Shown here piece by piece: positions 2,760 through 61,951 of a stretch of 64,000 nt of DNA; position 1 is the stretch's first letter; every line of letters begins with the position of its first letter. Source of the stretch: Pseudomonadota bacterium. Lineage in GTDB: Bacteria; Pseudomonadota; Alphaproteobacteria; Sphingomonadales; Sphingomonadaceae. The stretch covers positions 375-64,374 of the forward strand of contig JAZKHF010000066.1 of assembly GCA_040385545.1 (NCBI GenBank), read 5' to 3'. The position numbers and the translations under genes are program-made. The notes below the pieces were generated by a model, which saw only the letters and a program-made list of their open reading frames with translations, was not told the origin of the DNA and made no database searches.

Positions 2760-3749
2760 CTAATGACGAACGAACGAAATGGTGCGATCTGACGTCCAGC
2801 ACAGCGCGCAAGTGGCGCAGCAGCGCGCGGCATCGGTCTCAGCTGGGCAGCGGACGCCAGAGACGTCTTCCGGCCGCTCTACGACCTCGGAACAGTGCGT
2901 CTCGTAGCCGCCACCGCTGAAACGCATCCAGAAACGATCCTGGTGCTCGACCAGCGTGCGAAGGATGGCCATGCCGATCGGCTCGGACGCCTTGCGTGCG
3001 GTGAAACCGAAGATCCTGAGCGCGCGAAACTCCACGAGCGCCAATCGCCAGAATTCCACGTAAGCGATCGAGTAGAAATCGCCCAGGACGTGAAGACGGA
3101 CGAGGAAGCCGGCAGGGTGGGCGGCGTTGAGAGCGGCGAGCTCTGCCCAGATGCGCTTCGTCAGCGTGCCGTCGTCGTGGATTCGATGCGCGAACGGCAT
3201 ATTGTTGCCGTAGCACGTCGTCCATTCGAGGCAGGACCGTGGGCAAGTGTCGCGTTCCTCGAGAGTGAGGGTGAAGATCGGGATGCCGCGCCATTTCCCC
3301 TTGCCTACCTTGTCGCCGATCTTGCGGCTATTGTGACCCGATTTCAGGATCCGTTCGACCGTAGCGGCTGGTTTTACAGTGCTTGGGAAGAACGTCGTGG
3401 CCTTTCGAGACGCTGGATGGTGCGATTCGAGGACGATTTTCGGTCCTTTGTTGCTCACGACGCCCTCGAAGCGCCGATTTCCTGTGGAGTCGGGCTTCGG
3501 GGTCTTTTTTCGGCGCTTTCGTGTGCCTTTTCCAAGATTTCGCGTCGGAAGCCCCATTTTCGCCGCTGCGATGTAGATCGCGCCCGGCGAGGTCTCCATT
3601 TCGTCCGCAATCTGCTTCGTGGGCACCTTTTCGAGCCAAAGGCGCGTCAGCTGCTCTTTTCTGGCGCGATCCCACCGCCGCCACGGCCGACGGCGCCGGA
3701 TCTTGCCCGCGAAGGCCGTTTGCGGCCAATCTGGCGCCAATTCGGGCAT
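2760..3749 (-). CDS. GcrA-like HTH fused to Gp88-like Cys-rich (radical-SAM-like) domain
   Basis: N-terminal WDRARKEQLTRLWLEKVPTKQIADEM; TCPRSCLEWTTCY, VRLHVLGDF and C-terminal CCATCALC; TAATG coupling to upstream ATPase. Confidence 0.65.
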   Translation of the reverse strand: MPELAPDWPQTAFAGKIRRRRPWRRWDRARKEQLTRLWLEKVPTKQIADEMETSPGAIYIAAAKMGLPTRNLGKGTRKRRKKTPKPDSTGNRRFEGVVSNKGPKIVLESHHPASRKATTFFPSTVKPAATVERILKSGHNSRKIGDKVGKGKWRGIPIFTLTLEERDTCPRSCLEWTTCYGNNMPFAHRIHDDGTLTKRIWAELAALNAAHPAGFLVRLHVLGDFYSIAYVEFWRLALVEFRALRIFGFTARKASEPIGMAILRTLVEHQDRFWMRFSGGGYETHCSEVVERPEDVSGVRCPAETDAARCCATCALCWTSDRTISFVRH

Positions 3750-5428
3750 TATTTCTTGCCCGCATTGGGGAACAGCCAATCGGACGCTCTCAAATTACCT
3801 GGTGACGGGTAATCGATGGCTGTGAGCGTTTTCAGCGCGCCGCGCGCCTTCTGATAACTCGTCGAAAGCGGGGAATACTCGGATCGATCAGCGCATTCCT
3901 GGTTCGAAAGCGCTTCGGGATATACGTCCATCAATGCCTTGAGAATTCGCTGATGAGGCCCGCCGAGCTTACTCAGCACGCGGCGACGAAGTAGATCGCC
4001 GCTTGGCGCTTCGCCTGGACCCTCCGCTTCGGCCATGCCGAGATCGGTGAGCGAAATGCGGCCCGCGGACGGGTAATCGATCTTGCCGGCGGTTCGCAGC
4101 GCGCCCCTGGCCTTCTGGTAGCTGGTCGACTTGGGCGAATAGTTGGCGATGAACGCCACCTGTTCGTTGATCGGCTGGCCATGGCCAAGGACTTCCCACC
4201 AGGCCAGCGCATTGAGGATGCGCTGATGTGGCCCGCCAATGGTCTCGGCTGCAACAACCATCTGGTCTGCTGGCGTGTCGACCGCGATTCCCGCGACCGT
4301 GCCGCCGCCGTTCGGTTTCGGAACCACCTTGGTCTTCCCAACCAACTTCAATTCTTCGTCGATCATCGCCCGCACGCGCGTCAGGGCGAGCCGCGCACCG
4401 TTGGACTGTGCAGCCAGTAGAGCCGCCTCATCAACAGCTGGCGCGGGTAGAGGTTTTGGTGCCGGCGGTTGCGGCACCTTTTTCGCCACTTCGCGCGTGA
4501 GGCGGATGATTTCAGCCTTGAGCGCCGCTGGATCGTTCGCCTTCTGCTCTTCCTCGAGGCCGGCCAACTGTCCCTTCAAGGCGTCGATATTGAGCGGCTT
4601 GAGATCCCGCCGCTGCTTTCGTTCGCCGCGCTTCGGCGTGCGCGAGCTATCGAACGTCTTCTTCGGTGGGAAGGTGGCGGTTTCGAGGATTCCGCGGCCG
4701 GGAAGCCAGACGACGCCCTGGCCGCGTTGCATGGTCGGTAGCGAGGCGAGCATTTCCTTGCCAACCGCGCGATCCGCCTGTCCCTCGATCCAGCCGCCGA
4801 TAGCGTCGCGGTCCTGGCTGGCCATCAGCTTGAACGCAATGAGCCCGTCGGCCTGACTGAGCACGTCCTTTGACAGCACGGCCGGGCGCTGAGTGATAAG
4901 CCAGGGGATGAAGCCCTTGATCCGCCCGCGGCGCACGATCTCTTCCATGCGGCTCTGCAGCATCGGCTCCGTCGACCGTTGCGGCGCCCATAGGTCGGCT
5001 TCGTCGAAGACGACGTGGAAAGGATCTGCTTTCGACGGATTGGCCTTGCGGTAGAGCGAGTCCAGGAAGGCGAGCATGAAACGGCGTTCCGACGCCTTGG
5101 TGTGCATCCCGCCGAGACTGACAATGCAGCTTTCCTTCATGCCGGCCACGGTCTCGCCGATGAGGGCGCCAGCGTGGTCATTGAGCGGAATGTCCGCGTG
5201 GGCGCCGCCGAAGATAACGACGTTGTGCTTCGAAGGCTTCCCGTCGGCGGTGAGGCGAAGACCGAACCATACGTCGAGCGGATCGACGACGACGACGCGG
5301 GCGCCGCTTTCCAAAAGCCGCTCTACCGCGCCGCCAGCGCCGTATGTCTTTCCTGAGCCCGACGTGCCGACGAACGCCAGCCGGTCGTCCAGGGCTTCGT
5401 CAGGGATGGGGAATTCTCGTGTCGTCAT
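3749..5428 (-). CDS. HerA/FtsK-like (DUF87-type) P-loop ATPase with two C-terminal wHTH-like repeats
   Basis: Walker A GTSGSGKT, Walker B VVFDEAD, ITQRP; duplicated GGPHQRIL...STSYQKARGAL...IDYPS unit. Confidence 0.85.
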   Translation of the reverse strand: MTTREFPIPDEALDDRLAFVGTSGSGKTYGAGGAVERLLESGARVVVVDPLDVWFGLRLTADGKPSKHNVVIFGGAHADIPLNDHAGALIGETVAGMKESCIVSLGGMHTKASERRFMLAFLDSLYRKANPSKADPFHVVFDEADLWAPQRSTEPMLQSRMEEIVRRGRIKGFIPWLITQRPAVLSKDVLSQADGLIAFKLMASQDRDAIGGWIEGQADRAVGKEMLASLPTMQRGQGVVWLPGRGILETATFPPKKTFDSSRTPKRGERKQRRDLKPLNIDALKGQLAGLEEEQKANDPAALKAEIIRLTREVAKKVPQPPAPKPLPAPAVDEAALLAAQSNGARLALTRVRAMIDEELKLVGKTKVVPKPNGGGTVAGIAVDTPADQMVVAAETIGGPHQRILNALAWWEVLGHGQPINEQVAFIANYSPKSTSYQKARGALRTAGKIDYPSAGRISLTDLGMAEAEGPGEAPSGDLLRRRVLSKLGGPHQRILKALMDVYPEALSNQECADRSEYSPLSTSYQKARGALKTLTAIDYPSPGNLRASDWLFPNAGKK

Positions 5429-11841: not shown

Positions 11842-12183
11842 TCAGTCTCCAAAGCTCGGGATGGTGCTGTCATTCCAGTTGGTCCGGCGCCGCGGATTGG
11901 CCGTCGGATCGAAGCCGTCGTGCTGGCGAGCGTGTTCGGTGCGGCGCTTGAGATAGTCGTATTCGGCGCTTGCGATCTCATCGCCGGTGCAAGCGGGCCA
12001 GACGCGGTCAAGGTCGATCGGATCGCCGTTCGCTTCCGCTTGCCAGCGCCAGGACCGATCCATGATCTCGCCGGTGAGCGGATCCTTCGGCCGGCCGTGC
12101 CAGATGCGGATGCCAACCAGCGGGCCGCCGCGGACCAGCCGCATCCGGTAGAATCCCGCCACTGGCTCTTCGACGCTCACCAT
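11842..12183 (-). CDS. Hypothetical phage protein, first gene of leftward operon
   Basis: PVAGFYRMRLVRGGP motif; abuts divergent intergenic region. Confidence 0.7.
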   Translation of the reverse strand: MVSVEEPVAGFYRMRLVRGGPLVGIRIWHGRPKDPLTGEIMDRSWRWQAEANGDPIDLDRVWPACTGDEIASAEYDYLKRRTEHARQHDGFDPTANPRRRTNWNDSTIPSFGD

Positions 12184-12377
12184 TGATGTTTGCCCGTGCT
12201 GTCGACGACGAATCGCCTATCGCCCAACGGATAAGCGCGATTGGCCGGACGACGCAAGCGGCAATTGCAAAAAAAACAGTAATTCGTTCACGCCCTCTCT
12301 CTAGCCACTCCTTGGGCTGAGTATTTTTTATGTGCCCGGGCTTGACGGCATCAGTAATTAAAACCTAGCCACGGGGA
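12184..12377. promoter_or_regulatory. Divergent promoter region
   Basis: AT-rich gap between divergent operons; rightward TTGACG (12342) N17 CTAGCC; two CAGTAATT copies. Confidence 0.6.
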
Positions 12378-12635
12378 ATGTCACCACACCCATTCCCCAC
12401 GCTCGCTCGCCATATCGTCGACCGACTCGGCGGACGCTCTGAGGCCGCGCGCCTCACCGGCTACCCGCTGACGAAGATCGACTCGTGGCTCCGCTCCGGT
12501 TTCATCCCATGCCGGTTGCACAGTCTCATCCTCGAGTCGGCCTGGGCGGCTGGGATCACGATGAACGAGCTCGATTTCGTCGCTCACCTTCGCGGCATCA
12601 CGCCGCCAAGCGCGGCTCCCGAACGGACAGCCTAA
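12378..12635 (+). CDS. Cro-like HTH protein
   Basis: IVDRLGGRSEAARLTG...WLRSGFIP; first gene of rightward operon. Confidence 0.75.
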   Translation: MSPHPFPTLARHIVDRLGGRSEAARLTGYPLTKIDSWLRSGFIPCRLHSLILESAWAAGITMNELDFVAHLRGITPPSAAPERTA

Positions 12636-14648: not shown

Positions 14649-14695
14649 CGTCGTTTGCAAACTGATTTCTGACTTTGAAGGCACGGGCACCCCAG

Positions 14696-16198
14696 ATGAG
14701 CGACGACATTCATGGATTTCACGATCGCGTTCCGCCGGCGCCTCCGCCGCCGGATGAGCCGATCCAGCCGCCTCAGAACATCGAAGCGGAAGCTGCGCTG
14801 CTCGGCGCGTTGATGATCGACAATCGGCTGGTTGACGACGTGGTGGCGCGGCTGCGCCCGTTCCATTTCTACGAGCCCCTTCACGGCCGCATCTACGAAG
14901 CCATCGTGAAGATGGTGGGCGAGGGCAAGGTCACGAATCCGGTGACATTGAAGCCGATTTTCCAGAACGACGAAGTGATGAAGCAAGTCGGCGGCCCGGG
15001 CTATCTCGGGCAGTTGACCGGATCAGGCGCCGCGGTGATCGGAGCGCGCGACTTCGGAAACCAGATCGTTGACCTGGCGGAGCTTCGGGCAATCACGGTG
15101 AAGTTGCGGGACGCGCTAGATGCGATCCACAATGCGACGCTCGAGTGCACCCCGACGGAGATCGTCGCCAACCTGGAAGCCGAGCTCGCAACCGTGGTCA
15201 CGGAATCGGGCCGGGTCGCCTCCGTCAGCATGGGCACCGCGGCGCGCGACGCGGTCAACACGATCGAAGAGACGGCGGCGGGCAAGGAACCGAACGGGTT
15301 CCTGATCCGAGGGTTCGAAGATTACAACCACGTCCGGGGCCGGATGGAAGGCGGGGATTTTGACCTTCTGGGCGGCCGGCCGTCGATGGGCAAGACCGCG
15401 ACGTCTCTGGCGATCGGTCTCGGCGCCGCGACGGCCGGCGAAGGGACGGAGATATTGAGCCTCGAAATGAAGCGGGAGCTCATGGTCCGCCGGACGCTCG
15501 CCAATCTCATCTACCGGCCGGAAGGAAGCTGCAGTTACGCCGATCTTGTGAAGGGCCGGTTGTCTAAGGACGATTGGGCGCGGCTGGCCGATGCCAAGGC
15601 CCAGCTGGAAGCGATGCCTTATTCAATCTCCGATCCGCACGGACTGATGATCGAGGACGTCATGCCGTTCCTTCGCAAGCGCCAGCGGTGGTTCGCCGCA
15701 CGAGGCCAGAAGATGCGGCTGGTGATCGTCGACCACGTCGGCCGGCTGCAGTCTCGTCGGAAAATGCAGGAAACGGAGCTCGTCAGCCATATCAGCCGCA
15801 CCTTGAAGAGCGCGGCGCGGGAGCTCGACTGTTGCATCCTCGCCCTGGCGCAGTTGAACCGCGGACTCGAGCAGCGCGAGAACAAGCGCCCGATGCTCGC
15901 CGATCTTCGCCAGTCGGGCTCTCTCGAGCAAGACGCGGACAATGTGTGCTTCGTCTACCGCGAAGAATACTATCTCGGGCCAGCCGAGCCGCCGAAGGAC
16001 AAGGTCGAGAAGTGGCAAGCCTGGGCGGACGCGATGGACGCGGTGCGCGACGACCTCGAGATCTATTCGTCCAAGCGGCGCGAAGGCGCGCTGGCGAAGC
16101 GGACGGCGAAATTCTTCACGAAGCATCAGGCGATTCGCGACCACGGTGATTATCACGCGGCGCCGAGTTTCTTCGACGAAGACAACCATATTTTGTGA
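14696..16198 (+). CDS. dnaB: Replicative DNA helicase
   Basis: PPQNIEAEAALLG, GRPSMGKT, SLEM, LAQLNR, DLRQSGSLEQDAD. Confidence 0.95.
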   Translation: MSDDIHGFHDRVPPAPPPPDEPIQPPQNIEAEAALLGALMIDNRLVDDVVARLRPFHFYEPLHGRIYEAIVKMVGEGKVTNPVTLKPIFQNDEVMKQVGGPGYLGQLTGSGAAVIGARDFGNQIVDLAELRAITVKLRDALDAIHNATLECTPTEIVANLEAELATVVTESGRVASVSMGTAARDAVNTIEETAAGKEPNGFLIRGFEDYNHVRGRMEGGDFDLLGGRPSMGKTATSLAIGLGAATAGEGTEILSLEMKRELMVRRTLANLIYRPEGSCSYADLVKGRLSKDDWARLADAKAQLEAMPYSISDPHGLMIEDVMPFLRKRQRWFAARGQKMRLVIVDHVGRLQSRRKMQETELVSHISRTLKSAARELDCCILALAQLNRGLEQRENKRPMLADLRQSGSLEQDADNVCFVYREEYYLGPAEPPKDKVEKWQAWADAMDAVRDDLEIYSSKRREGALAKRTAKFFTKHQAIRDHGDYHAAPSFFDEDNHIL

Positions 16199-33015: not shown

Positions 33016-33092
33016 TGCGGGATGGAGCAGCCTGGTAGCTCGCGTGGCTCATAACCACGAGGTCGGGGGTTCGAATCCCCCTCCCGCCACCA
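33016..33092 (+). tRNA. tRNA-Met(CAT), initiator type
   Basis: Full cloverleaf with encoded CCA; U1xC72 mismatch, A11-U24, G2-C71/C3-G70. Confidence 0.93.
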
Positions 33093-43347: not shown

Positions 43348-43731
43348 ATGCCAGTCGTGACCGCCACACCGGCCAGGATCCGCCGCTCGAGGCGCGACGC
43401 CGAATATGCCCGCGTCACCAACGCCGGCATCCTCACCCTCAATCCGATCGCAGCTGATGGTTTCGCAGACGTCCAGGAAACCTTCTTCGACTCGACCGAT
43501 GACGCCCAGGTGCTTCTGACGGAGAAGTCGACCTATCTCATGGCGCACCGCGTTCACCTTGGCATTGAAGCCGCCGCGTCGTTCGGGATGGGGAGCGCGA
43601 TCGCTATCTCTCCCACGCTGCCCAAGGCCAGGGTGCTCGACCGCGAAGCCGAGCTCGACCGCAACCTGATGGTCAAAGGCATGGCGCGAGATCTCCACAC
43701 CGATCGCGATTCGCTCGAGCTCATCGGATGA
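43348..43731 (+). CDS. Putative minor tail protein
   Basis: ETFFDSTDDAQ motif, tail-region synteny. Confidence 0.55.
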   Translation: MPVVTATPARIRRSRRDAEYARVTNAGILTLNPIAADGFADVQETFFDSTDDAQVLLTEKSTYLMAHRVHLGIEAAASFGMGSAIAISPTLPKARVLDREAELDRNLMVKGMARDLHTDRDSLELIG

Positions 43732-44798
43732 CGGCGCTCGCGTTCACGTCGCGCACCGATGCCCAGATCGTGCTCGCGCTCACGGCTGGCGGCGGCGAGA
43801 CGCAATTTGAAGTCGAAGCGAACCGCCAGCCTGATTTCTCGAGCGACGATTCGCTGGTCAAGACCGGGCTCGCGGCGGGCGCGGTGACATTCACGGGCTT
43901 GCCCGCCGAAACACCCTTTTGGTTCCGGGGAAGGTCGACCAATGGCGGCGTCAAGGGGCCGTGGTCCCTGCTGCTGCTGCAAGCGACCGCGGTGCCCGCC
44001 GCTCCCGCCGCCTATACCGGCTATTCTATCGAGCCGGCGATCCTCGTCGTGCCCGAAGCGCTGTCTCAGATGCAATGCGCCGCGGCCGACGCTGGTTCGA
44101 CGGCCGACAACCTCAACAACGACGATCCGCTTTCCGTCCTTCGTTCGTCCAGCGGTTCGCTCTCGATCATCTTCAACACCGGCGGCGTCCCGCTGGACGT
44201 GATTGCGCTCTTGGGCACGATGGCCAACGACGGCGCGACATGGCGCATTCGCTGCGCGTCCAGCCAGGCCAACTTGACCGCGTCGCCGACGATGGACACC
44301 GGCACCGTGGCCCTTCGCGTCAGCACGGGGATCGGCCGGCGCCCCAGCTATCACGCGTATCGCCGGCTGAGCGCGAGCCGAACCGATGCCTGGTGGCAGA
44401 TCGACATTGTCCACACCGCGCCTCAGTTCATCGCTCGCCACCTGGTCGTTGGTCTCGCGAGGCAAAGCGTCAACTATTCGCGCGGTGCAGGAGCGGTGCC
44501 GATGGATCTTGGCCAGATGGCGCGAACGACGTTCGGCGCTCCCGATCGCACGCCAGGATGGCGGGGAAGACAGGTCGACTTTGCGCTCTCGTGGTTGAGC
44601 GAGACAGAATATGAGACAAAATGGTCGCGGCTGGACCAGCTGGTCGGGACCACGTTCCCGGTGCTCGCCCTGCCTAACCCCAAGGCCAATCTCTACCTTA
44701 ACGATCGCATCGCCTACGGTCACATCACGGGGATGCGCGGCGAGAACGTCCGCGATGCCAAGTGGTCGAAGTCTCTGGATATTGCCTCGCTCTACTGA
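43728..44798 (+). CDS. Putative tail/baseplate protein with FnIII-like N-terminus
   Basis: TFTGLPAETPFWFRGRS...GPWS. Confidence 0.6.
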   Translation: MTALAFTSRTDAQIVLALTAGGGETQFEVEANRQPDFSSDDSLVKTGLAAGAVTFTGLPAETPFWFRGRSTNGGVKGPWSLLLLQATAVPAAPAAYTGYSIEPAILVVPEALSQMQCAAADAGSTADNLNNDDPLSVLRSSSGSLSIIFNTGGVPLDVIALLGTMANDGATWRIRCASSQANLTASPTMDTGTVALRVSTGIGRRPSYHAYRRLSASRTDAWWQIDIVHTAPQFIARHLVVGLARQSVNYSRGAGAVPMDLGQMARTTFGAPDRTPGWRGRQVDFALSWLSETEYETKWSRLDQLVGTTFPVLALPNPKANLYLNDRIAYGHITGMRGENVRDAKWSKSLDIASLY

Positions 44799-44799
44799 G

Positions 44800-44880
44800 C
44801 GTCCTGGGTGGACCGGCCATGTTGTCAAGCACATGACCGGCCCACCACTCGGTCGACGCACGGGCAGCGCAGCCAACGGG
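44800..44880 (-). ncRNA. Candidate small RNA
   Basis: TGGACT-N17-CATATA(AT) upstream on - strand; 16-bp hairpin 44807-44846 fully paired (2 G-U) only on - strand. Confidence 0.4.
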
Positions 44881-44990
44881 CCGATTATATGGCATCGCCC
44901 TTCACGGTAGTCCAGCGCTTCGTTCGTTCGTTGAAGCGAGACAAAAGGCGTCCGACGTGATAGCTCGAACGCGCCAGAGGGAGCTCGCCG

Positions 44991-45317
44991 GTGCCGACGA
45001 TCCAAGAAAGCCTGACGACGATCCGCGACGCCGCGCACATCAACGCACACGCGCTCGAATTGATCGCCACTGAGGCCGAAGAATTCTACGAGACGATTAG
45101 GACGTGGCCTGACTCTAGCGTCAAGCGCGATATGCTGGCGCAGCTGGCGACGACCATCACCGCGTTCCGCACCGCTCAGCGCGAGGCCAACGACCTTAAG
45201 ACGGTATCGCAGGAAGGTCTGCAGAGCTCGAGCAACGATCCCGTGCCGTTGCCGCCGCCTTATCCTGACATTCCCAGCGCTGGCGGCACGGCTCAGTGGT
45301 CCGTGAGGGATTGGTAG
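44991..45317 (+). CDS. Hypothetical protein
   Basis: GAGGGAG RBS, abuts next gene. Confidence 0.6.
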   Translation: MPTIQESLTTIRDAAHINAHALELIATEAEEFYETIRTWPDSSVKRDMLAQLATTITAFRTAQREANDLKTVSQEGLQSSSNDPVPLPPPYPDIPSAGGTAQWSVRDW

Positions 45318-45794
45318 ATGGCGCTCGGCGTTCGCTTTGAAGCCGTCGACGAGCTCCCGCTTATCCTGACGCCCGGCACGCTCTACTTTCGCAAGCGGGT
45401 GGACGGGGAATTCGACCTCGTGACGCCAGAGATCGACGGCTCCCCTGTCTTCGCGCGCCGCCCGCATCTGCAGATGGCCTTCGAAGCGAGCGGTGTGTTC
45501 ATTCCAGCCGGCGAGGAGATCGGCCGCTACCTCACCGTCGAAGATATCGAGCTCGACGCGTTGCTCAGCGGCGCGGTCTCGGCGACGCCGGCGACGGACG
45601 AACGAGATTTCACGATCCACCGCGGCGTCGACCTCGTCGCCCGCTTCCGTTTCCCGGCCGGGCAGAGCCAGGCGCAAGTCCTGATCCTCATGCCCACTGT
45701 GCCGATGAACAATCTTCTGATATTTCGAACCCCGTCGTCGTCGGACGCGACGTTGAGCGGCGTTACGGGCACGCTTGGAGCTCGAAGGACTTAA
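45318..45794 (+). CDS. Putative virion accessory protein
   Basis: Beta-rich, tail-region synteny. Confidence 0.55.
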   Translation: MALGVRFEAVDELPLILTPGTLYFRKRVDGEFDLVTPEIDGSPVFARRPHLQMAFEASGVFIPAGEEIGRYLTVEDIELDALLSGAVSATPATDERDFTIHRGVDLVARFRFPAGQSQAQVLILMPTVPMNNLLIFRTPSSSDATLSGVTGTLGARRT

Positions 45795-45805
45795 GGGAGA
45801 CCAAC

Positions 45806-46216
45806 ATGACCGTGCAAATTGCAGACTCGATCGCAAACGCCATGCTCGACTCGTGGGAATCCGCGATCGGGACCACGCCGAAGCTCCGCATCCGCACCGG
45901 CGCTCCGCCGGCGAACGTAGCCGCCGCGTCGACGGGCACCATCCTTGTCGAAATCGATCTCCCTTCGGACTGGATGGCCGCGGCGGCGGCGCGTTCGAAG
46001 GCCGCTCAGGGTAGTTGGGTTGACGCCGCCGCGAACAACCCCGGCACGGCTGGCCATTATGAGATCGTCAAGGCCGATGGCACGACGCGCCAGGAGCAAG
46101 GCACCGTGACGGCCACGGGCGGCGGCGGCGACATGACGATCGACAACGTCGTCATCGCGGTCGGACAACAGGTTACGGTCACGAGCTTCACGCGCTCGAT
46201 GCCCAACAACGCATAA
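45806..46216 (+). CDS. Conserved virion structural protein
   Basis: ANAMLD...LRIRTGAPPA...QGTVTATGGGGDMTIDN...VTVTSF pattern. Confidence 0.7.
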   Translation: MTVQIADSIANAMLDSWESAIGTTPKLRIRTGAPPANVAAASTGTILVEIDLPSDWMAAAAARSKAAQGSWVDAAANNPGTAGHYEIVKADGTTRQEQGTVTATGGGGDMTIDNVVIAVGQQVTVTSFTRSMPNNA

Positions 46217-51164: not shown

Positions 51165-51493
51165 GCCGCCTCGAGCTTCCGCCGATCGAGCTCAGCAAGC
51201 GCAGCGTGCACGTCTTCCAGGCTGTGCTCCCTGGCGTCAATGAAGACCACATAGTGTTGAGAGCTCTGTTGATAGTTTCCCTCTTCCATACTTTGGAGCC
51301 TGAACGCCGGCCAGACGTGTTTATTATCGACCGTCATCCATGCTTCGCCGCCCGGCGTTGCCTTTGTAAATGAGCGGTTTTCTGGATTATCCCCTGTGTT
51401 GATTCCGTTGTCGTGGATAGCTTGGAATTTTATCTTTCGGCTCCATCCGTAGTCTTCGACGGATAGGACGTTCATCTTCGCTATAACGTGCAT
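51161..51493 (-). CDS. Conserved small phage protein
   Basis: ENRSFTKATPGG...VDN motif; GAGAGG RBS. Confidence 0.7.
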   Translation of the reverse strand: MHVIAKMNVLSVEDYGWSRKIKFQAIHDNGINTGDNPENRSFTKATPGGEAWMTVDNKHVWPAFRLQSMEEGNYQQSSQHYVVFIDAREHSLEDVHAALAELDRRKLEAA

Positions 51494-51516
51494 GGCGATT
51501 CCTCTCGCAATTTAAG

Positions 51517-51607
51517 GTGAATTCCTCGTCGGGACAGCGGCGGCGGGTGCTGGAATGGCTCATCAGCAGCGCGCCCCGGTGCCAGTCCGGAAAGGCGAGG
51601 AATTTAT
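51517..51607. ncRNA. Candidate structured intergenic RNA
   Basis: GTGAATTCCTCGTC / GGCGAGGAATTTAT closing stem with nested stems. Confidence 0.4.
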
Positions 51608-51614
51608 GCGCTTT

Positions 51615-52550
51615 CTATGATTTCCGCGCAAGTGCTCTCTCCGCCGCCTCGCGCTTGCTCTTCGCCTTGTGGCACGTCTGGCACCGGAGCCTCAGATTGT
51701 CGGGCCCGTAGAACGGCCGGCGCTCTTCGTCTGAAAGGTGCCAGATGCTCCATAGCGGTGTGTCGTGGTCGACCTCGAGGCCGCCACAGTGAGGCCGCCA
51801 TTGGATCGACGAGTAGAGCCCGACGATCACGCCATCGACTCGAGTCCCCGCGAGAGGAAATAGCCGATCCCAATCGGCGTTCGTCCGCGGCCGGGCCATG
51901 CAACCCGGGACGCCCTGCCAAGCATATTTCGGAACGACCAGGTCGAGACGCCACCAGCGCCCGCCCTGCTTGCAATCCCAGCAGTCGTAGCCGTCTCGCT
52001 CGATCAGGAAGCGTGTCTGGGCGTCACGATCATAGTGGAGCAGCCACGTTTGCTTGCAGTCAGGATGCCAGTTGCGGTTCTTCCGATAGCGCCCTTCGAT
52101 GTAGCCGCCGCACCATCTGCACCAGCCGGCGCCCTTCCAGTCCTTGGGAAGCGGCACCGTGCGCCGTTCGCGGGTGAGCCGTTGTCGATCGCTTTCGGTG
52201 AGGCCCAACTGAAACCGCTTCGTCCGTTCGGCTTGGGAGAGTGGTTCGAAAGAGGACCAGAACGATCGGCGCTGCTCATCCGGCCGGCAAGCCTCGCTAC
52301 AGGCGATGAGGATTGGTTTGCCTTCGTCAAGGTCGTGGAAAGCGCCGCGCCACGTCCAGCCGCGCGCCCACGGCCCGCTCCGCGCGCATTTCGAGCAGCT
52401 GTGTTTCCTCGCACGCTCCCACGAGACAGCGATTGGCGTCTTCCGGGCGAGGATTCGATCGCGCTCGGCCGTGCCCTTCACCACGACCGAAGGCGGCGGA
52501 TCGCCCCACTTCCCGCCGCGCCGGCGAAAGTAGATACGGTAGAGGCTCAT
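51615..52550 (-). CDS. Zn-finger HNH endonuclease
   Basis: CWDC...LEVDHDTPL...DNLRLRCQTCHKAK. Confidence 0.75.
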   Translation of the reverse strand: MSLYRIYFRRRGGKWGDPPPSVVVKGTAERDRILARKTPIAVSWERARKHSCSKCARSGPWARGWTWRGAFHDLDEGKPILIACSEACRPDEQRRSFWSSFEPLSQAERTKRFQLGLTESDRQRLTRERRTVPLPKDWKGAGWCRWCGGYIEGRYRKNRNWHPDCKQTWLLHYDRDAQTRFLIERDGYDCWDCKQGGRWWRLDLVVPKYAWQGVPGCMARPRTNADWDRLFPLAGTRVDGVIVGLYSSIQWRPHCGGLEVDHDTPLWSIWHLSDEERRPFYGPDNLRLRCQTCHKAKSKREAAERALARKS

Positions 52551-55478: not shown

Positions 55479-55727
55479 TCATGCCGTCCTCGTGATGCGC
55501 CAGAGTTGAACGGTCTCAGATGCGAGACACGTCTGAGGGACAGCCAGGAAGGCCGCCGCCGTGAAGACCCAATCGCGGATCGCTAGTGGCCGCCGCGAGA
55601 TCGCCGGCAATGGCGGGTGGACGCCGTCGCGGGCCACCCAGCGGGTCTCGCCAACGGCGAACCGCATAAGCTCGTCGTTTAGGCTTCCGGCGTGGACTCG
55701 CTCGCCTCGATATTTTCTGCTTTTCAT
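55479..55727 (-). CDS. Hypothetical protein
   Basis: ATGA coupling. Confidence 0.5.
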   Translation of the reverse strand: MKSRKYRGERVHAGSLNDELMRFAVGETRWVARDGVHPPLPAISRRPLAIRDWVFTAAAFLAVPQTCLASETVQLWRITRTA

Positions 55728-56035
55728 GTCCGCGCTCCCATTTCGAACGCGGTCATATTGAAAACGACGTTGTCGCCAACGGTGATGACGTTCGAGTCGA
55801 GCGAAATGTCGAAGCTCCCGCGTCCGGTGATGCCAACGGTGCCGAAGGCCACGATCTCTCCGCTCTTGCGGTCGACGACCTGGGAGTGCTCGGCCACCCC
55901 TGACGCCACCGCGCGCTCAGTCGCGATCCCTAACTTGGCCTCAAAGGCGACAAGCAGCGTGCCGAACGACGCCCCTGCCTCTACAGCGCGTGTGTTCAAT
56001 TCTCCGGTGCGGAGTTCGATCAGATAATTTGTCAT
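55724..56035 (-). CDS. Hypothetical protein
   Basis: Preceded by GCACGGGCA motif. Confidence 0.55.
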   Translation of the reverse strand: MTNYLIELRTGELNTRAVEAGASFGTLLVAFEAKLGIATERAVASGVAEHSQVVDRKSGEIVAFGTVGITGRGSFDISLDSNVITVGDNVVFNMTAFEMGART

Positions 56036-56060: not shown

Positions 56061-56279
56061 TCAGCCCTTCGTGGGCGGTGGAGTCCATCCTAGTTGAATG
56101 AGCGCGACGCGAATACTCGCTTCCTGCAGATCGATTGCGCCCTGCCACAGAGCATCGCCGCGTTCCTTGCCGAAGATCGACGTGACGATCTCCTTCTCGA
56201 TCAGGAACGGCCGGTAGCGCGTCTTGACGATCAGCTGAGGGAGATCGTCGCTCCCGGTTGCGCCTTCCAAACGTCCCAT
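56061..56279 (-). CDS. Hypothetical protein
   Basis: AGGAG RBS; ALIQLGWTPP end. Confidence 0.6.
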   Translation of the reverse strand: MGRLEGATGSDDLPQLIVKTRYRPFLIEKEIVTSIFGKERGDALWQGAIDLQEASIRVALIQLGWTPPPTKG

Positions 56280-59249: not shown

Positions 59250-59471
59250 TTAAATGAATTGGAAGCCAAGACTGTAGTTGGCCACGTTGTCGCAAACCAC
59301 TTCGGAAAAGCAGTTTTCAAGGTTCGGCTGGTCGGCGGAGCCAAGGAAGGCGAGCGCGGCGCTCAGAGACACCCCGCCGCCGCTTTTCATATAAGCGGCA
59401 ACCGCCGCGCGATGAAGCTCCGCCGGATCGTTGACGTTGATCCGGATCGTCACCGTGACGGGCGCGCTCAT
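59250..59471 (-). CDS. Hypothetical protein
   Basis: ATGA coupling to clamp gene. Confidence 0.55.
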   Translation of the reverse strand: MSAPVTVTIRINVNDPAELHRAAVAAYMKSGGGVSLSAALAFLGSADQPNLENCFSEVVCDNVANYSLGFQFI

Positions 59472-61951
59472 GCCAATGACTCCTGGTCCGAACGTTCAGC
59501 ACGGCTGGCCAGTGGCAAGATGATCGACGGCGCAGCGTCTTCGGCTGGACGTCGATCCAGAGTGGCGGAGCGAGCGGCAAGGCTTTCCAGCGCATCGCAC
59601 CGCACGGTGAGCCGTCCCGCCATCGCCATCGCACCGCTGGCCTTGGCCCGATAGCGAAGCGCAGTCCGGACGCGCCGGAACCGCTGGCCAAGATGATCTT
59701 GGCGCATGGTCCGCGCTTCGTCGCGCTCCGCCGTAACCGTGGCCAGCTGGCTTACAAGCTCCGCCACCCTCTCTTGCGCCACGTTGGCACAGCGTTCGAG
59801 CACAGCGTTCGAAAGCGCGAAGCCCTGGCGCTGGCGACGAAGCGCCAGATATGCCCGGACAATCCGTTCCCGCGCAGCTGAACGCTCAGGCTTGGCCGCC
59901 GCCGGCGTAACAGTGGCCGCCGGCACGCCGCCGCCCTTCACCATCGCGGCGATGCTGGCCAGCTGGAATTCCAGATCAGCGACGCGGCTGGCCAGAGCAT
60001 CCGGCTTCGGCTCGCGTGGCGCCGCGGCCTGGTCCGCGCGGGCGCGGGGAAGTATCTCGCGCTTGATGTTGTCGCGGAGCACGCGCTTCCAGCTGCCGCC
60101 CTTCGCCTCAGGCTCGCACATCGGCACGCCTTCTTTCGTGACGCGCCGGACAAAGGGACCATCCCCGCGATAGGTGCCGCCGTCGACGAAGATGACTTGG
60201 CCGTAGACGGTTTCGACCTTGACCACGTCCAGAGGCCCGGCTTCATCGGCTGGCGCATCGATCGGCGGAGAGTCGATCGCTTCCGCCGCGACCGGCGCGG
60301 GAAGCTCTTCGCTCGCCTCTTCAACCGGCTCAGGCGCCGCCTCAGGCTCGACAACCGGCGCGACCGGCTCCGGACTAGGGCAAGGCTCCTGGACAGGCTC
60401 AGCGGCGGCCACGGGCGCGGCTGGCATGGCCACGGGATCGCCCGCCTCACCCTTAAGCCACGCCGAATAGGCCATTGAACGCCGATAGGTGGTCTGGTCG
60501 TTCATCTGGACAGCGGCCAGCGCCTTCACGATCAGGCGCGCTTCAAGGCGCGTCTTCCCACGGCTGGCGATGAAGGCGATTGCCGCTGTCATGGCCTTGC
60601 CCAGCGCCGCCCGCCGCTTCGTGCGAAGCCGCCGCGCCGCCCGGATAAAGTCAGGCCGCCGCGCTGTGTCGCTCGGCATCGGTCCAATAGGAGTCAGCGC
60701 GTCGCGCGCCAGTTGCGGGAGATCGGCCATCAGCCGCTCCATTGGGTTCATGTTCAGCTTGGCCACGTTCGCCTCGCTCATCACTTGCCCATGCGTGCGA
60801 AGCGGCATCAGGACAAGCAACAGGCCCGGCTGGCTTTCGCCTTCGATCCGGAACGGTGCCGTCGCATCTTCGCCGGTCAGCGTCACGTCGCCGTCGAAGA
60901 GCTTCAACGCCTCAGTGAGATAGCGCGCATTGACGCCGAGCGCATATTCGCCGCTCGCAATGTCCGCTTCGACAACCGCCGCGCTCGTGCCGCTTTCCGG
61001 CGAAGAGCAGCTGGCGACCATCTTCTGGCCAGCGACAAGGCTCAGCGTCACGCCTCGCGTTCGCTCATCCGACGTCGCGGTGACGGTGGCCAGCGTATCG
61101 GCGACCTTGCCAGCGTCGAACGTGACGCGGTGCTGGTTATGGTGCGGGATCACCCTGGTATAGTCGGGGAACGTGCCGTCGATTGTCTTCGTCGTCAGGC
61201 GCACGCGCCCAATCTGCAATTCAATCTTCGTCGCGCTGACCCGGACCCGAGTAAAGCGTTCCGCGCTCGCCTTCGCGCCTAGCAAAGCGTGGGCGACCGT
61301 GGCCGCCTTTTTCGGCAAGAGCACATCGGGCATGGTTTCGGCGCCCGGCTGGATCGGCACGGTATAGCGCGCCAGCCTGTGGCCGTCGGTCGCGGCGAAG
61401 CGGAGCACGTCAGGCTCGCCCGGCTGGTCACAGCGCGCGTGAAGGAAGACGCCCATCAGATAGTATCGCGTCTCTTCGGAAGAGATCGCGTGCCGCGTAT
61501 TGTCCAGCGCGCGGCGGAGCACGGAATGAGGAAGCTCGAAGTCGGCCGCAAATTCGCCGACGATCATTTCCGGAAAGTCATCGGCGGAACGGCTGGCCAG
61601 CGTAGAGCGCGCGCCGGTCGCGTCATTGACTAGCTCGACCTTGCCGCCGACGTCGATCATCGTGACGGTCTCGCCCTTCACCTTGGCGATAGCATCGGCG
61701 AACGCCTTCGCCTCTACGGTGAAGGAACCGGACGAATCGCCCAGCGCGGCGCATGGGAATTCGATCCTGGCCACAATGTCCAGATCGGTCCCGGTCGCGC
61801 TGGCCAGCCCGTCGCGGAACGTGAAAAGGATATGAGACAGGATTGGGATGGTGTTGCGGCGCTCGACAATCTTCTTCGTCACCTTGGCCACTTCGGCAAG
61901 GCTCGCTGTGTCGGTCTGGAAGCCGACGCTCATGCTTGAATAGTCGTTCAT
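59468..61951 (-). CDS. dnaN: DNA polymerase III beta sliding clamp with long C-terminal extension
   Basis: RRNTIPILSHI, GTDLD, AISSEETRYYLMGV, ATDGHRLA, IDGTFPDYTRVIP, LVLMPLR, then about 440 extra aa. Confidence 0.9.
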   Translation of the reverse strand: MNDYSSMSVGFQTDTASLAEVAKVTKKIVERRNTIPILSHILFTFRDGLASATGTDLDIVARIEFPCAALGDSSGSFTVEAKAFADAIAKVKGETVTMIDVGGKVELVNDATGARSTLASRSADDFPEMIVGEFAADFELPHSVLRRALDNTRHAISSEETRYYLMGVFLHARCDQPGEPDVLRFAATDGHRLARYTVPIQPGAETMPDVLLPKKAATVAHALLGAKASAERFTRVRVSATKIELQIGRVRLTTKTIDGTFPDYTRVIPHHNQHRVTFDAGKVADTLATVTATSDERTRGVTLSLVAGQKMVASCSSPESGTSAAVVEADIASGEYALGVNARYLTEALKLFDGDVTLTGEDATAPFRIEGESQPGLLLVLMPLRTHGQVMSEANVAKLNMNPMERLMADLPQLARDALTPIGPMPSDTARRPDFIRAARRLRTKRRAALGKAMTAAIAFIASRGKTRLEARLIVKALAAVQMNDQTTYRRSMAYSAWLKGEAGDPVAMPAAPVAAAEPVQEPCPSPEPVAPVVEPEAAPEPVEEASEELPAPVAAEAIDSPPIDAPADEAGPLDVVKVETVYGQVIFVDGGTYRGDGPFVRRVTKEGVPMCEPEAKGGSWKRVLRDNIKREILPRARADQAAAPREPKPDALASRVADLEFQLASIAAMVKGGGVPAATVTPAAAKPERSAARERIVRAYLALRRQRQGFALSNAVLERCANVAQERVAELVSQLATVTAERDEARTMRQDHLGQRFRRVRTALRYRAKASGAMAMAGRLTVRCDALESLAARSATLDRRPAEDAAPSIILPLASRAERSDQESLA

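Follow-up and report, generated by a model that had tools for sequence, protein, structure and literature searches.

Does a 192-bp gap in the tail operon of a phage (44799-44990) hold the gene of an RNA that acts on leaders elsewhere in the same genome? The gap belongs to a stretch of 64,000 nucleotides, here called the window, which is nearly all of the 65.6-kb contig C66 from a genome bin of 2.6 Mb and 66% completeness. An earlier note on this DNA had proposed that one RNA, read from the minus strand of this gap in the tail operon, pairs with the leaders of replication and early genes, a reading that the conserved layout and the co-variation of seed and leaders support. The element is real and conserved. 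We predict with high confidence that it is a base-pairing RNA and consider it probable that, in either of the roles weighed below, it represses translation; with rather less confidence we favour a small RNA that acts in trans, keeps ribosomes off a regulon encoded by the phage itself and sets the pace of lytic development. In total, 18 loci were found in two sister clades, each antisense to the distal late operon. Class A denotes relatives at the same locus behind the same upstream gene, class B those of the sister clade with unrelated seeds.

The window phage is a lambda-like siphophage with terminase, portal, capsid, tape measure, DnaB, a replication initiator and a RecT-like protein. Its host is probably a sphingomonad, because the named homologs of one early protein come mostly from Sphingomonas and kin; binning is no proof of this. 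Searches of cultured phages found no close cultured relative, and among cultured phages, plasmids and 60 related genomes there was no close relative at the DNA level, only one weak match. The genome also holds a tRNA gene in the tail region (33016-33089, plus strand) and a gene for an 827-aa protein (59468-61951, minus strand) that contains a complete DnaN sliding-clamp domain, followed by a long C-terminal half without assignment; its relatives include similar long forms.

The predicted RNA locus and its sites in the window

The promoter-like site described in the earlier note was present on the minus strand, with a -35-like hexamer TGGACT (44914-44909) and, 17 nt behind it, a -10-like hexamer CATATA (44891-44886). 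Of 16 family loci, 14 have a -35 that begins with TTG and 12 a -10 that begins with CATA, the motif having been part of their selection. An E. coli-type promoter scan did not list this site. The terminator scan found nothing at the locus, in agreement with what had been said before; a U-tract is absent from the window RNA and from class A and present in most class B loci.

The predicted small RNA is about 80 nt long (44880-44800, both ends putative) and lies directly behind, and on the opposite strand to, a 356-aa tail-region gene (43728-44798, plus strand; phrog_8610 in PHROGs), the position of the class A RNAs. Its fold (z -3.9) has two abutting hairpins, a layout shared by five class A relatives. 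Hairpin 1 (44877-44852), drawn from fold prediction and comparison, has a weak, G-U-rich stem and a C-rich 5-nt loop. The 10-nt seed (44867-44858), defined by target matching and shuffles, takes up the loop and the start of the 3' arm, and a 6-nt extension, GUCGAC (44857-44852), is complementary to the leader of the first leftward gene. In hairpin 2 (44846-44807) the segment 44846-44831 pairs with 44822-44807, giving 16 bp with two G-U pairs around an 8-nt loop; it occupies the position of the U-tract terminator of class B. Seed, extension and 16-bp hairpin had all been recognised on this strand before, and the order of seed and hairpin stands, but hairpin 1 had been missed and the seed is not single-stranded. 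The preference of the fold for the minus strand was reproduced as well, with z-scores against shuffles of -3.0 to -3.9 there and -0.6 on the plus strand.

At all 16 loci the RNA has its own promoter-like motif in an intergenic gap (the motif was used to select them) and is non-coding; no reading frame is shared across the RNA loci. A promoter of its own and the lack of a coding frame are features of trans-acting bacterial small RNAs of the Hfq type, which typically also end in a U-tract intrinsic terminator and bind Hfq or ProQ. A 760-codon frame of the minus strand (43554-45836) was rejected as a shadow of the plus-strand genes, since it mirrors their codon bias and is not kept in relatives. 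Contig-level comparisons gave no variant inside the RNA; a contig of run X1, possibly the run from which the DNA came, carries it unchanged, and no holder of the RNA was listed among public runs. Short TTCG repeats lie in three intergenic places, at 44919-44931 and 2766-2778 of the window and near the right end of C66, and such repeats stand upstream of the RNA promoter in the class A locus L007 too.

A relaxed pattern of the RNA-promoter type has six matches in the window, one of them before the leftward early operon (12257-12230, minus strand). A second promoter-like site of the same type is found at the true late/early junction (51493-51631, minus strand), where a 110-nt leader holding CTGATGAG precedes a 110-aa AT-rich gene; this leader folds no better than shuffles and has no Rfam match. 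The CTGATGAG core is also enriched in leaders of the class B records G941, G950 and G963.

The complement of the seed precedes five of about 85 start codons (85-86 called, with a simple purpose-made gene caller), always in sense; in antisense it precedes none. All five sites reported earlier were found. Exact complements of 10 nt lie between the Shine-Dalgarno sequence and the ATG of a HerA-like ATPase gene (gene 3749-5428, site 5438-5429, minus strand), whose ortholog is a target under a different seed in G466, and of a 72-aa gene without family (56061-56279, site 56289-56280, minus strand). Exact complements of 9 nt precede the gene for a DnaB-like helicase (14696-16198, site 14681-14689, plus strand) and that for a 103-aa protein with a weak phrog_3758 match (55724-56035, site 56046-56038, minus strand). 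The first leftward gene (11842-12183, 113 aa) has complementarity of 6 and 9 nt with one bulge in its leader (12206-12191, minus strand); the predicted binding of -20.8 kcal/mol is the best among 86 starts, the other four targets ranking 4th, 7th, 10th and 12th, and an 8-nt core of the site is kept before the ortholog in G467. Between 0 and 7 nt separate each of the five sites from its start codon; two span the spacer behind AGGA, and many sites across the family likewise occupy the spacer between Shine-Dalgarno and start. The targets are unlinked, the nearest site being 11 kb from the RNA locus.

In GC-rich DNA such matches might arise by chance. The raw motif count, taken with up to one mismatch, is at chance level (11 found, 8.9 expected), and unconstrained duplex energies, dominated by GC content, did not discriminate. 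The placement at starts speaks against chance, as helices of at least 9 bp occurred at 5 of 86 start regions against a mean of 0.29 for shuffled seeds, and none of 300 shuffles reached five. In a blind scan, the seed motif was the top 8-mer in leaders other than Shine-Dalgarno sequences. Adding the own/foreign counts below and the independent recurrence in G467, G466, G950, G945 and G942, we give chance hardly any credit, and the co-variation counts largely refute it.

Two further matches were set aside: on host contig C162, a 10-nt site that precedes an ATG falls within a longer reading frame, and CACGGG in the protease gene of the window, G061 and G463 is within coding sequence. We also noticed that the window has two phrog_3758-like genes, an early one (55724-56035, minus strand), which is the one with the 9-nt site, and a late one (45806-46216, plus strand) with a 7-nt partial site about 35 nt upstream and weak predicted binding.

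Relatives behind the same tail gene

Class A loci were found through alignments, using 31 homologs of the upstream tail-region gene and a 901-aa tail protein. In L007, L009, G061, G462 and G463 the element lies behind the same gene, at a protein identity of 42-52%, and all five show the promoter-like site, hairpin 1 and hairpin 2 on the minus strand. The minus-strand folds have z-scores of -1.35 to -4.21, the plus-strand folds of -0.03 to -1.36. Across an alignment of five sequences, both partners differ in 10 of the 22 pairs, a value reached in none of 500 shuffles and with slid structures scoring lower, the tested structure being derived from these same five sequences. Four loci keep CCCGUG and their stem pairing partners drift, as would be expected if a partner outside the hairpin holds the seed in place.

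Sites for the own seed were found before late-region genes in G061 (9 nt) and G463 (12 and 10 nt), where changes in the flanks of the class A seed are matched. G467 is an early-region fragment without the RNA region; the 8-nt core CACGGGCA precedes 3 of its 42 starts, one of them that of the first leftward gene's ortholog (55% identity), and is the sole 8-mer found there at three or more starts. No 9-nt leader match was seen in the 70 starts of G462, which has a divergent loop, lacks the first leftward gene and is a record 65% complete, and none in the 20 starts of L009. In G468, whose record does not include the RNA region, the first early gene lacks the motif. The five-gene target set of the window was compared piecemeal, few of the close relatives examined having both the RNA and the early genes and none in class A being complete.

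The site in G061 lies in a leader hairpin before a membrane-protein gene (G061:C1:28836-28897; L027:13318-13379), one arm of which is a cis copy of the seed paired to the site itself; the tape-measure sites in G466 and G942 seem to lie within comparable hairpins. One perfect 13-nt complement joins the G462 seed to a leader of G476 (G476:C1:57701-57713, L185). As a single cross-genome match it was taken as chance, chance and cross-phage targeting both being possible.

Beyond these loci, 15 distant homologs of the upstream gene in genomes of the family gave no class A pattern. A 17-nt target pattern had two viral matches, both unrelated, and a promoter-plus-seed pattern had 33, of which only the two known loci are credible. 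A covariance model of five sequences (R1) missed the held-out L009 and all class B loci, and its negatives were dropped. In more distant phages, conserved hairpins stand directly behind a short form of the same tail-region gene (L069 from 11270, L077 from 18023, L057, L060, L074, L100); in L069 and L077 they come with a U-tract and a promoter-like GCATATC, both on the plus strand.

The sister clade and the co-variation of seed and leader

Class B was reached by a descriptor scan that gave 35 matches from 525 promoter-like sites, most of them inside genes. At 12 of 14 junctions of late and early operons, on the strand antisense to the late operon, a promoter-like site is followed by two hairpins, the second of them terminator-like (G466, G474, G475, G476, G939, G940, G941, G942, G945, G947, G950 and G963; seven of these were picked by eye among the printed junctions). 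Their 5' parts have 4-7 contiguous letters in common with the window RNA, and it is position, promoter, layout and shared targets, rather than sequence, that speak for homology between the RNAs of the two classes.

The class B seeds find sites in their own genomes, some of these matches being inflated where a seed overlaps Shine-Dalgarno-like letters. G466 pairs 14 nt at its HerA-like ortholog, 13 nt at the first leftward gene ortholog and 12 nt at the tape measure gene, and G942 pairs 16 nt at the tape measure gene. G950 has a 13-nt site at the tape measure gene and sites in four further leaders, one of 12 nt; G945 has 12 nt at the first leftward gene and 11 nt at the replication initiator gene. 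In G941, G942 and G947 the gene behind the major tail protein is paired over 10 nt each; this gene is weakly similar to tail assembly chaperones, a lead only. There is no perfect 9-mer in G476, which pairs 14 bp plus one G-U at the replication initiator, and G475 has three sites with one G-U. A seed-blind 8-mer pipeline run on 26 records flagged four, namely the window, G466, G950 and G946, the last an artefact that picks up a leader site from its opposite strand. Type II hammerhead ribozymes scoring above the Rfam cut-off are present in G940, G941 (three copies) and G942, at L202:19892-19958 (minus strand), L205:2680-2744, 3816-3887 and 4534-4604 (plus strand) and L208:2321-2393 (plus strand).

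Sixteen RNAs were then compared with the leaders of 25 records, leaving out L007 and L009, which have no surrounding sequence. Matches of at least 10 nt were found in 22 of 1088 own and 139 of 26128 foreign leaders, and those of at least 12 nt in 8 of 1088 and 16 of 26128, a 12-fold excess. Because the records are related, p-values for it are overstated, and some of the foreign matches are genuine cross-matches among class B seeds. The same-sense control gave 2 of 1088 and the mid-gene control 6 of 1091. Single interruptions were G-U in 6 own duplexes, A-C in 2 and other in 8, against 57, 49 and 169 in foreign ones. Counted by gene, sites of at least 10 nt precede the first leftward gene in 3 of 11 records (counted by seed), the HerA-like gene in 2 of 5, the tape measure gene in 4 of 16 and the gene after the major tail protein in 3 of 15. 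For each gene the recurrent targets are thus a minority of records, and orthologous genes recur as targets under different seeds. Twelve of the 16 loci fold more stably on the antisense strand. Comparison of relatives accordingly bears out the earlier note, in that promoter, position, strand and two-hairpin fold are kept and the seed changes with the leader sites of each genome.

The same counts bear on the reading, already offered as an alternative in the earlier note, that a phage protein binds the motif as DNA or as RNA, in which case the copy at 44858 would be a further such site on the late mRNA and the hairpin would be a terminator. The second hairpin of class B is indeed a two-way terminator where late and early operons meet. 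The window element, however, is 6 kb away from the operon junction, every locus has a promoter-like site in front of it, and the G-U pairs favour the antisense strand. The reading is weakened above all because the motif itself is not conserved across the clades, whereas its complementarity to the hairpin-1 loop is, and we regard it as very unlikely.

A different question is what pairing would do to the leaders. The RNA might alter transcription termination or leader folding, as P4 CI does, or switch translation on. P4 CI works by termination, according to PMC4825925; the G061 site forms one arm of a leader hairpin, the other arm being a copy of the seed; and the tape-measure sites stop 15-19 nt short of the start, lie upstream of the Shine-Dalgarno sequence and are often part of leader hairpins, so that activation or termination control is possible at these leaders. 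The position of the five window sites immediately before their start codons and behind AGGA argues the other way, as does the location of several sites inside operons, and for the RNA as a whole we judge such a mechanism improbable. Repression by occlusion of the ribosome-binding region is the reading we keep.

Life style, mechanism and known systems

In a terminase tree of 26 records, classes A and B are sister groups and ten records with RNA-less junctions form a separate group, with full support. The nine RNA-bearing records at least 90% complete contain no tyrosine integrase, resolvase, ParA or S24 domain over the cut-off; G939 has both the RNA and a weak S24-type gene and is labelled provirus. 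Eight of the nine RNA-less-junction records tested have an integrase, a serine recombinase or an S24 repressor (G702 was outside these searches). In the window, no integrase, CI-type repressor or antirepressor was recognised with PHROGs among the 94 ORFs scanned, and a Cro-like gene at 12378 is the only regulator of that kind. This gene looks nearly leaderless, and the interval 12183-12378 has divergent early promoters and the Cro-like gene with no CI in between.

The RNA may pair as described and yet be the master switch of dormancy and superinfection immunity in place of CI, its seed setting immunity groups like c4 in P1 and P7, which we hold to be unlikely. A resident genome would then make the RNA and keep early and replication genes silenced, a doubtful proposition in our view. 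The missing CI and integrase genes of the window agree with it, as do the lack of S24 domains in the RNA-bearing records beside their frequency, with integrases and recombinases, in the RNA-less ones, the early or replication functions of all five window targets and the housekeeping-type promoter. The contrast with the RNA-less records, however, is one event on the terminase tree and not nine, the RNA-bearing records lack integrase, resolvase and ParA and with them any known means of residence, G939 combines the RNA with a weak S24-type gene, and class B targets include late tail genes. The earlier suggestion that the RNA replaces a missing CI holds up as far as the association of RNA and CI absence goes, and loses ground on the single split, on G939 and on the tail targets of the relatives. 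That a whole alphaproteobacterial siphophage clade swapped CI for one rewritable RNA, with early, replication and tail-assembly genes held down, non-integrated dormancy and seed-set immunity groups, has a small chance of being right.

The role is the least certain part of our account, with lytic pacing the first choice and RNA-only dormancy or immunity the second; lytic pacing is preferred because the RNA-bearing clade is without integrase, resolvase and ParA. Host sigma70 would transcribe the predicted RNA, given that the leftward early promoter is of the same type. The C-rich loop of hairpin 1 would touch a GGG in the leader first, the weak G-U-rich stem would open, and 9-15 bp would form, excluding 30S subunits from the paired leaders, while hairpin 2 would protect or end the RNA. 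The weakest steps concern its use: as it accumulates during lytic growth, the RNA may damp early and replication genes, and in the sister clade it may limit low-copy tail proteins. In class A the late mRNA, crossing the RNA gene in antisense, would mop up the RNA in the late phase of infection. The shared terminator of class B would stop the late transcript short of the seed.

The nearest known system is the c4 RNA of P1 and P7. As PMC12197685 describes it, loop-exposed short sequences of c4 pair with the ribosome-binding region of an mRNA of the same phage, and seed differences accompany target differences between related phages; a loop-exposed short complement to ribosome-binding regions that co-varies among related phages was found here too. 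According to the same text, c4 controls one adjacent operon (ant) by way of a protein antirepressor, whereas the window RNA has several unlinked early, replication and tail targets up to 40 kb away, two hairpins, and no recognised antirepressor or CI. The Rfam c4 model did not match, and an adjacent antirepressor operon is not the target. In the window, only the tRNA reached the Rfam gathering score and the RNA region had two chance matches at E values up to 10; in seven loci holding class B RNAs there was no match at the RNA.

P4 CI is similar as an RNA that controls replication genes in a phage without a protein repressor; according to PMC4825925 it is cut from the leader that it controls, pairs with the flanking seqA and seqC and causes termination. 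The window RNA, in contrast, has its own promoter-like site, is antisense to the late operon and has sites overlapping start regions in trans; its nearest site being 11 kb away, cis-flanking targets and leader processing were not found. SviR of the PLE satellite, as summarised in bioRxiv 10.1101/2022.04.08.487710, is a mobile-element small RNA that regulates phage transcripts and has several targets, but it belongs to a satellite and acts on genes of the helper as well as on the satellite's own. The sar, OOP and aQ RNAs are mobile-element small RNAs as well, but cis-antisense to one gene in the account of PMC12197685, and in the accessible text of these two sources neither they nor SviR are described as a seed-rewritten family with a multi-gene self regulon. 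At the level of listings and abstracts, with few subscription papers covered, no description of this RNA was found. Six contig names are absent from three tables of a viral RNA catalogue of about 10,000 candidates (PMC10690425), where the motif may be listed without a function.

Where a phage small RNA has a proven target in a phage, that target is mostly a single neighbouring gene. The RNA gene described here holds one genomic address in two sister clades, and its seed and several unlinked leaders appear to have been rewritten together. The series of seeds and leaders amounts to a natural compensatory-mutation series, rare for any trans-acting small RNA. In phages without CI this would be an RNA-only regulatory circuit, and one that can be tested directly. 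It opens the question of how such phages pace their early, replication and tail genes, and it may supply natural orthogonal pairs of RNA and leader.
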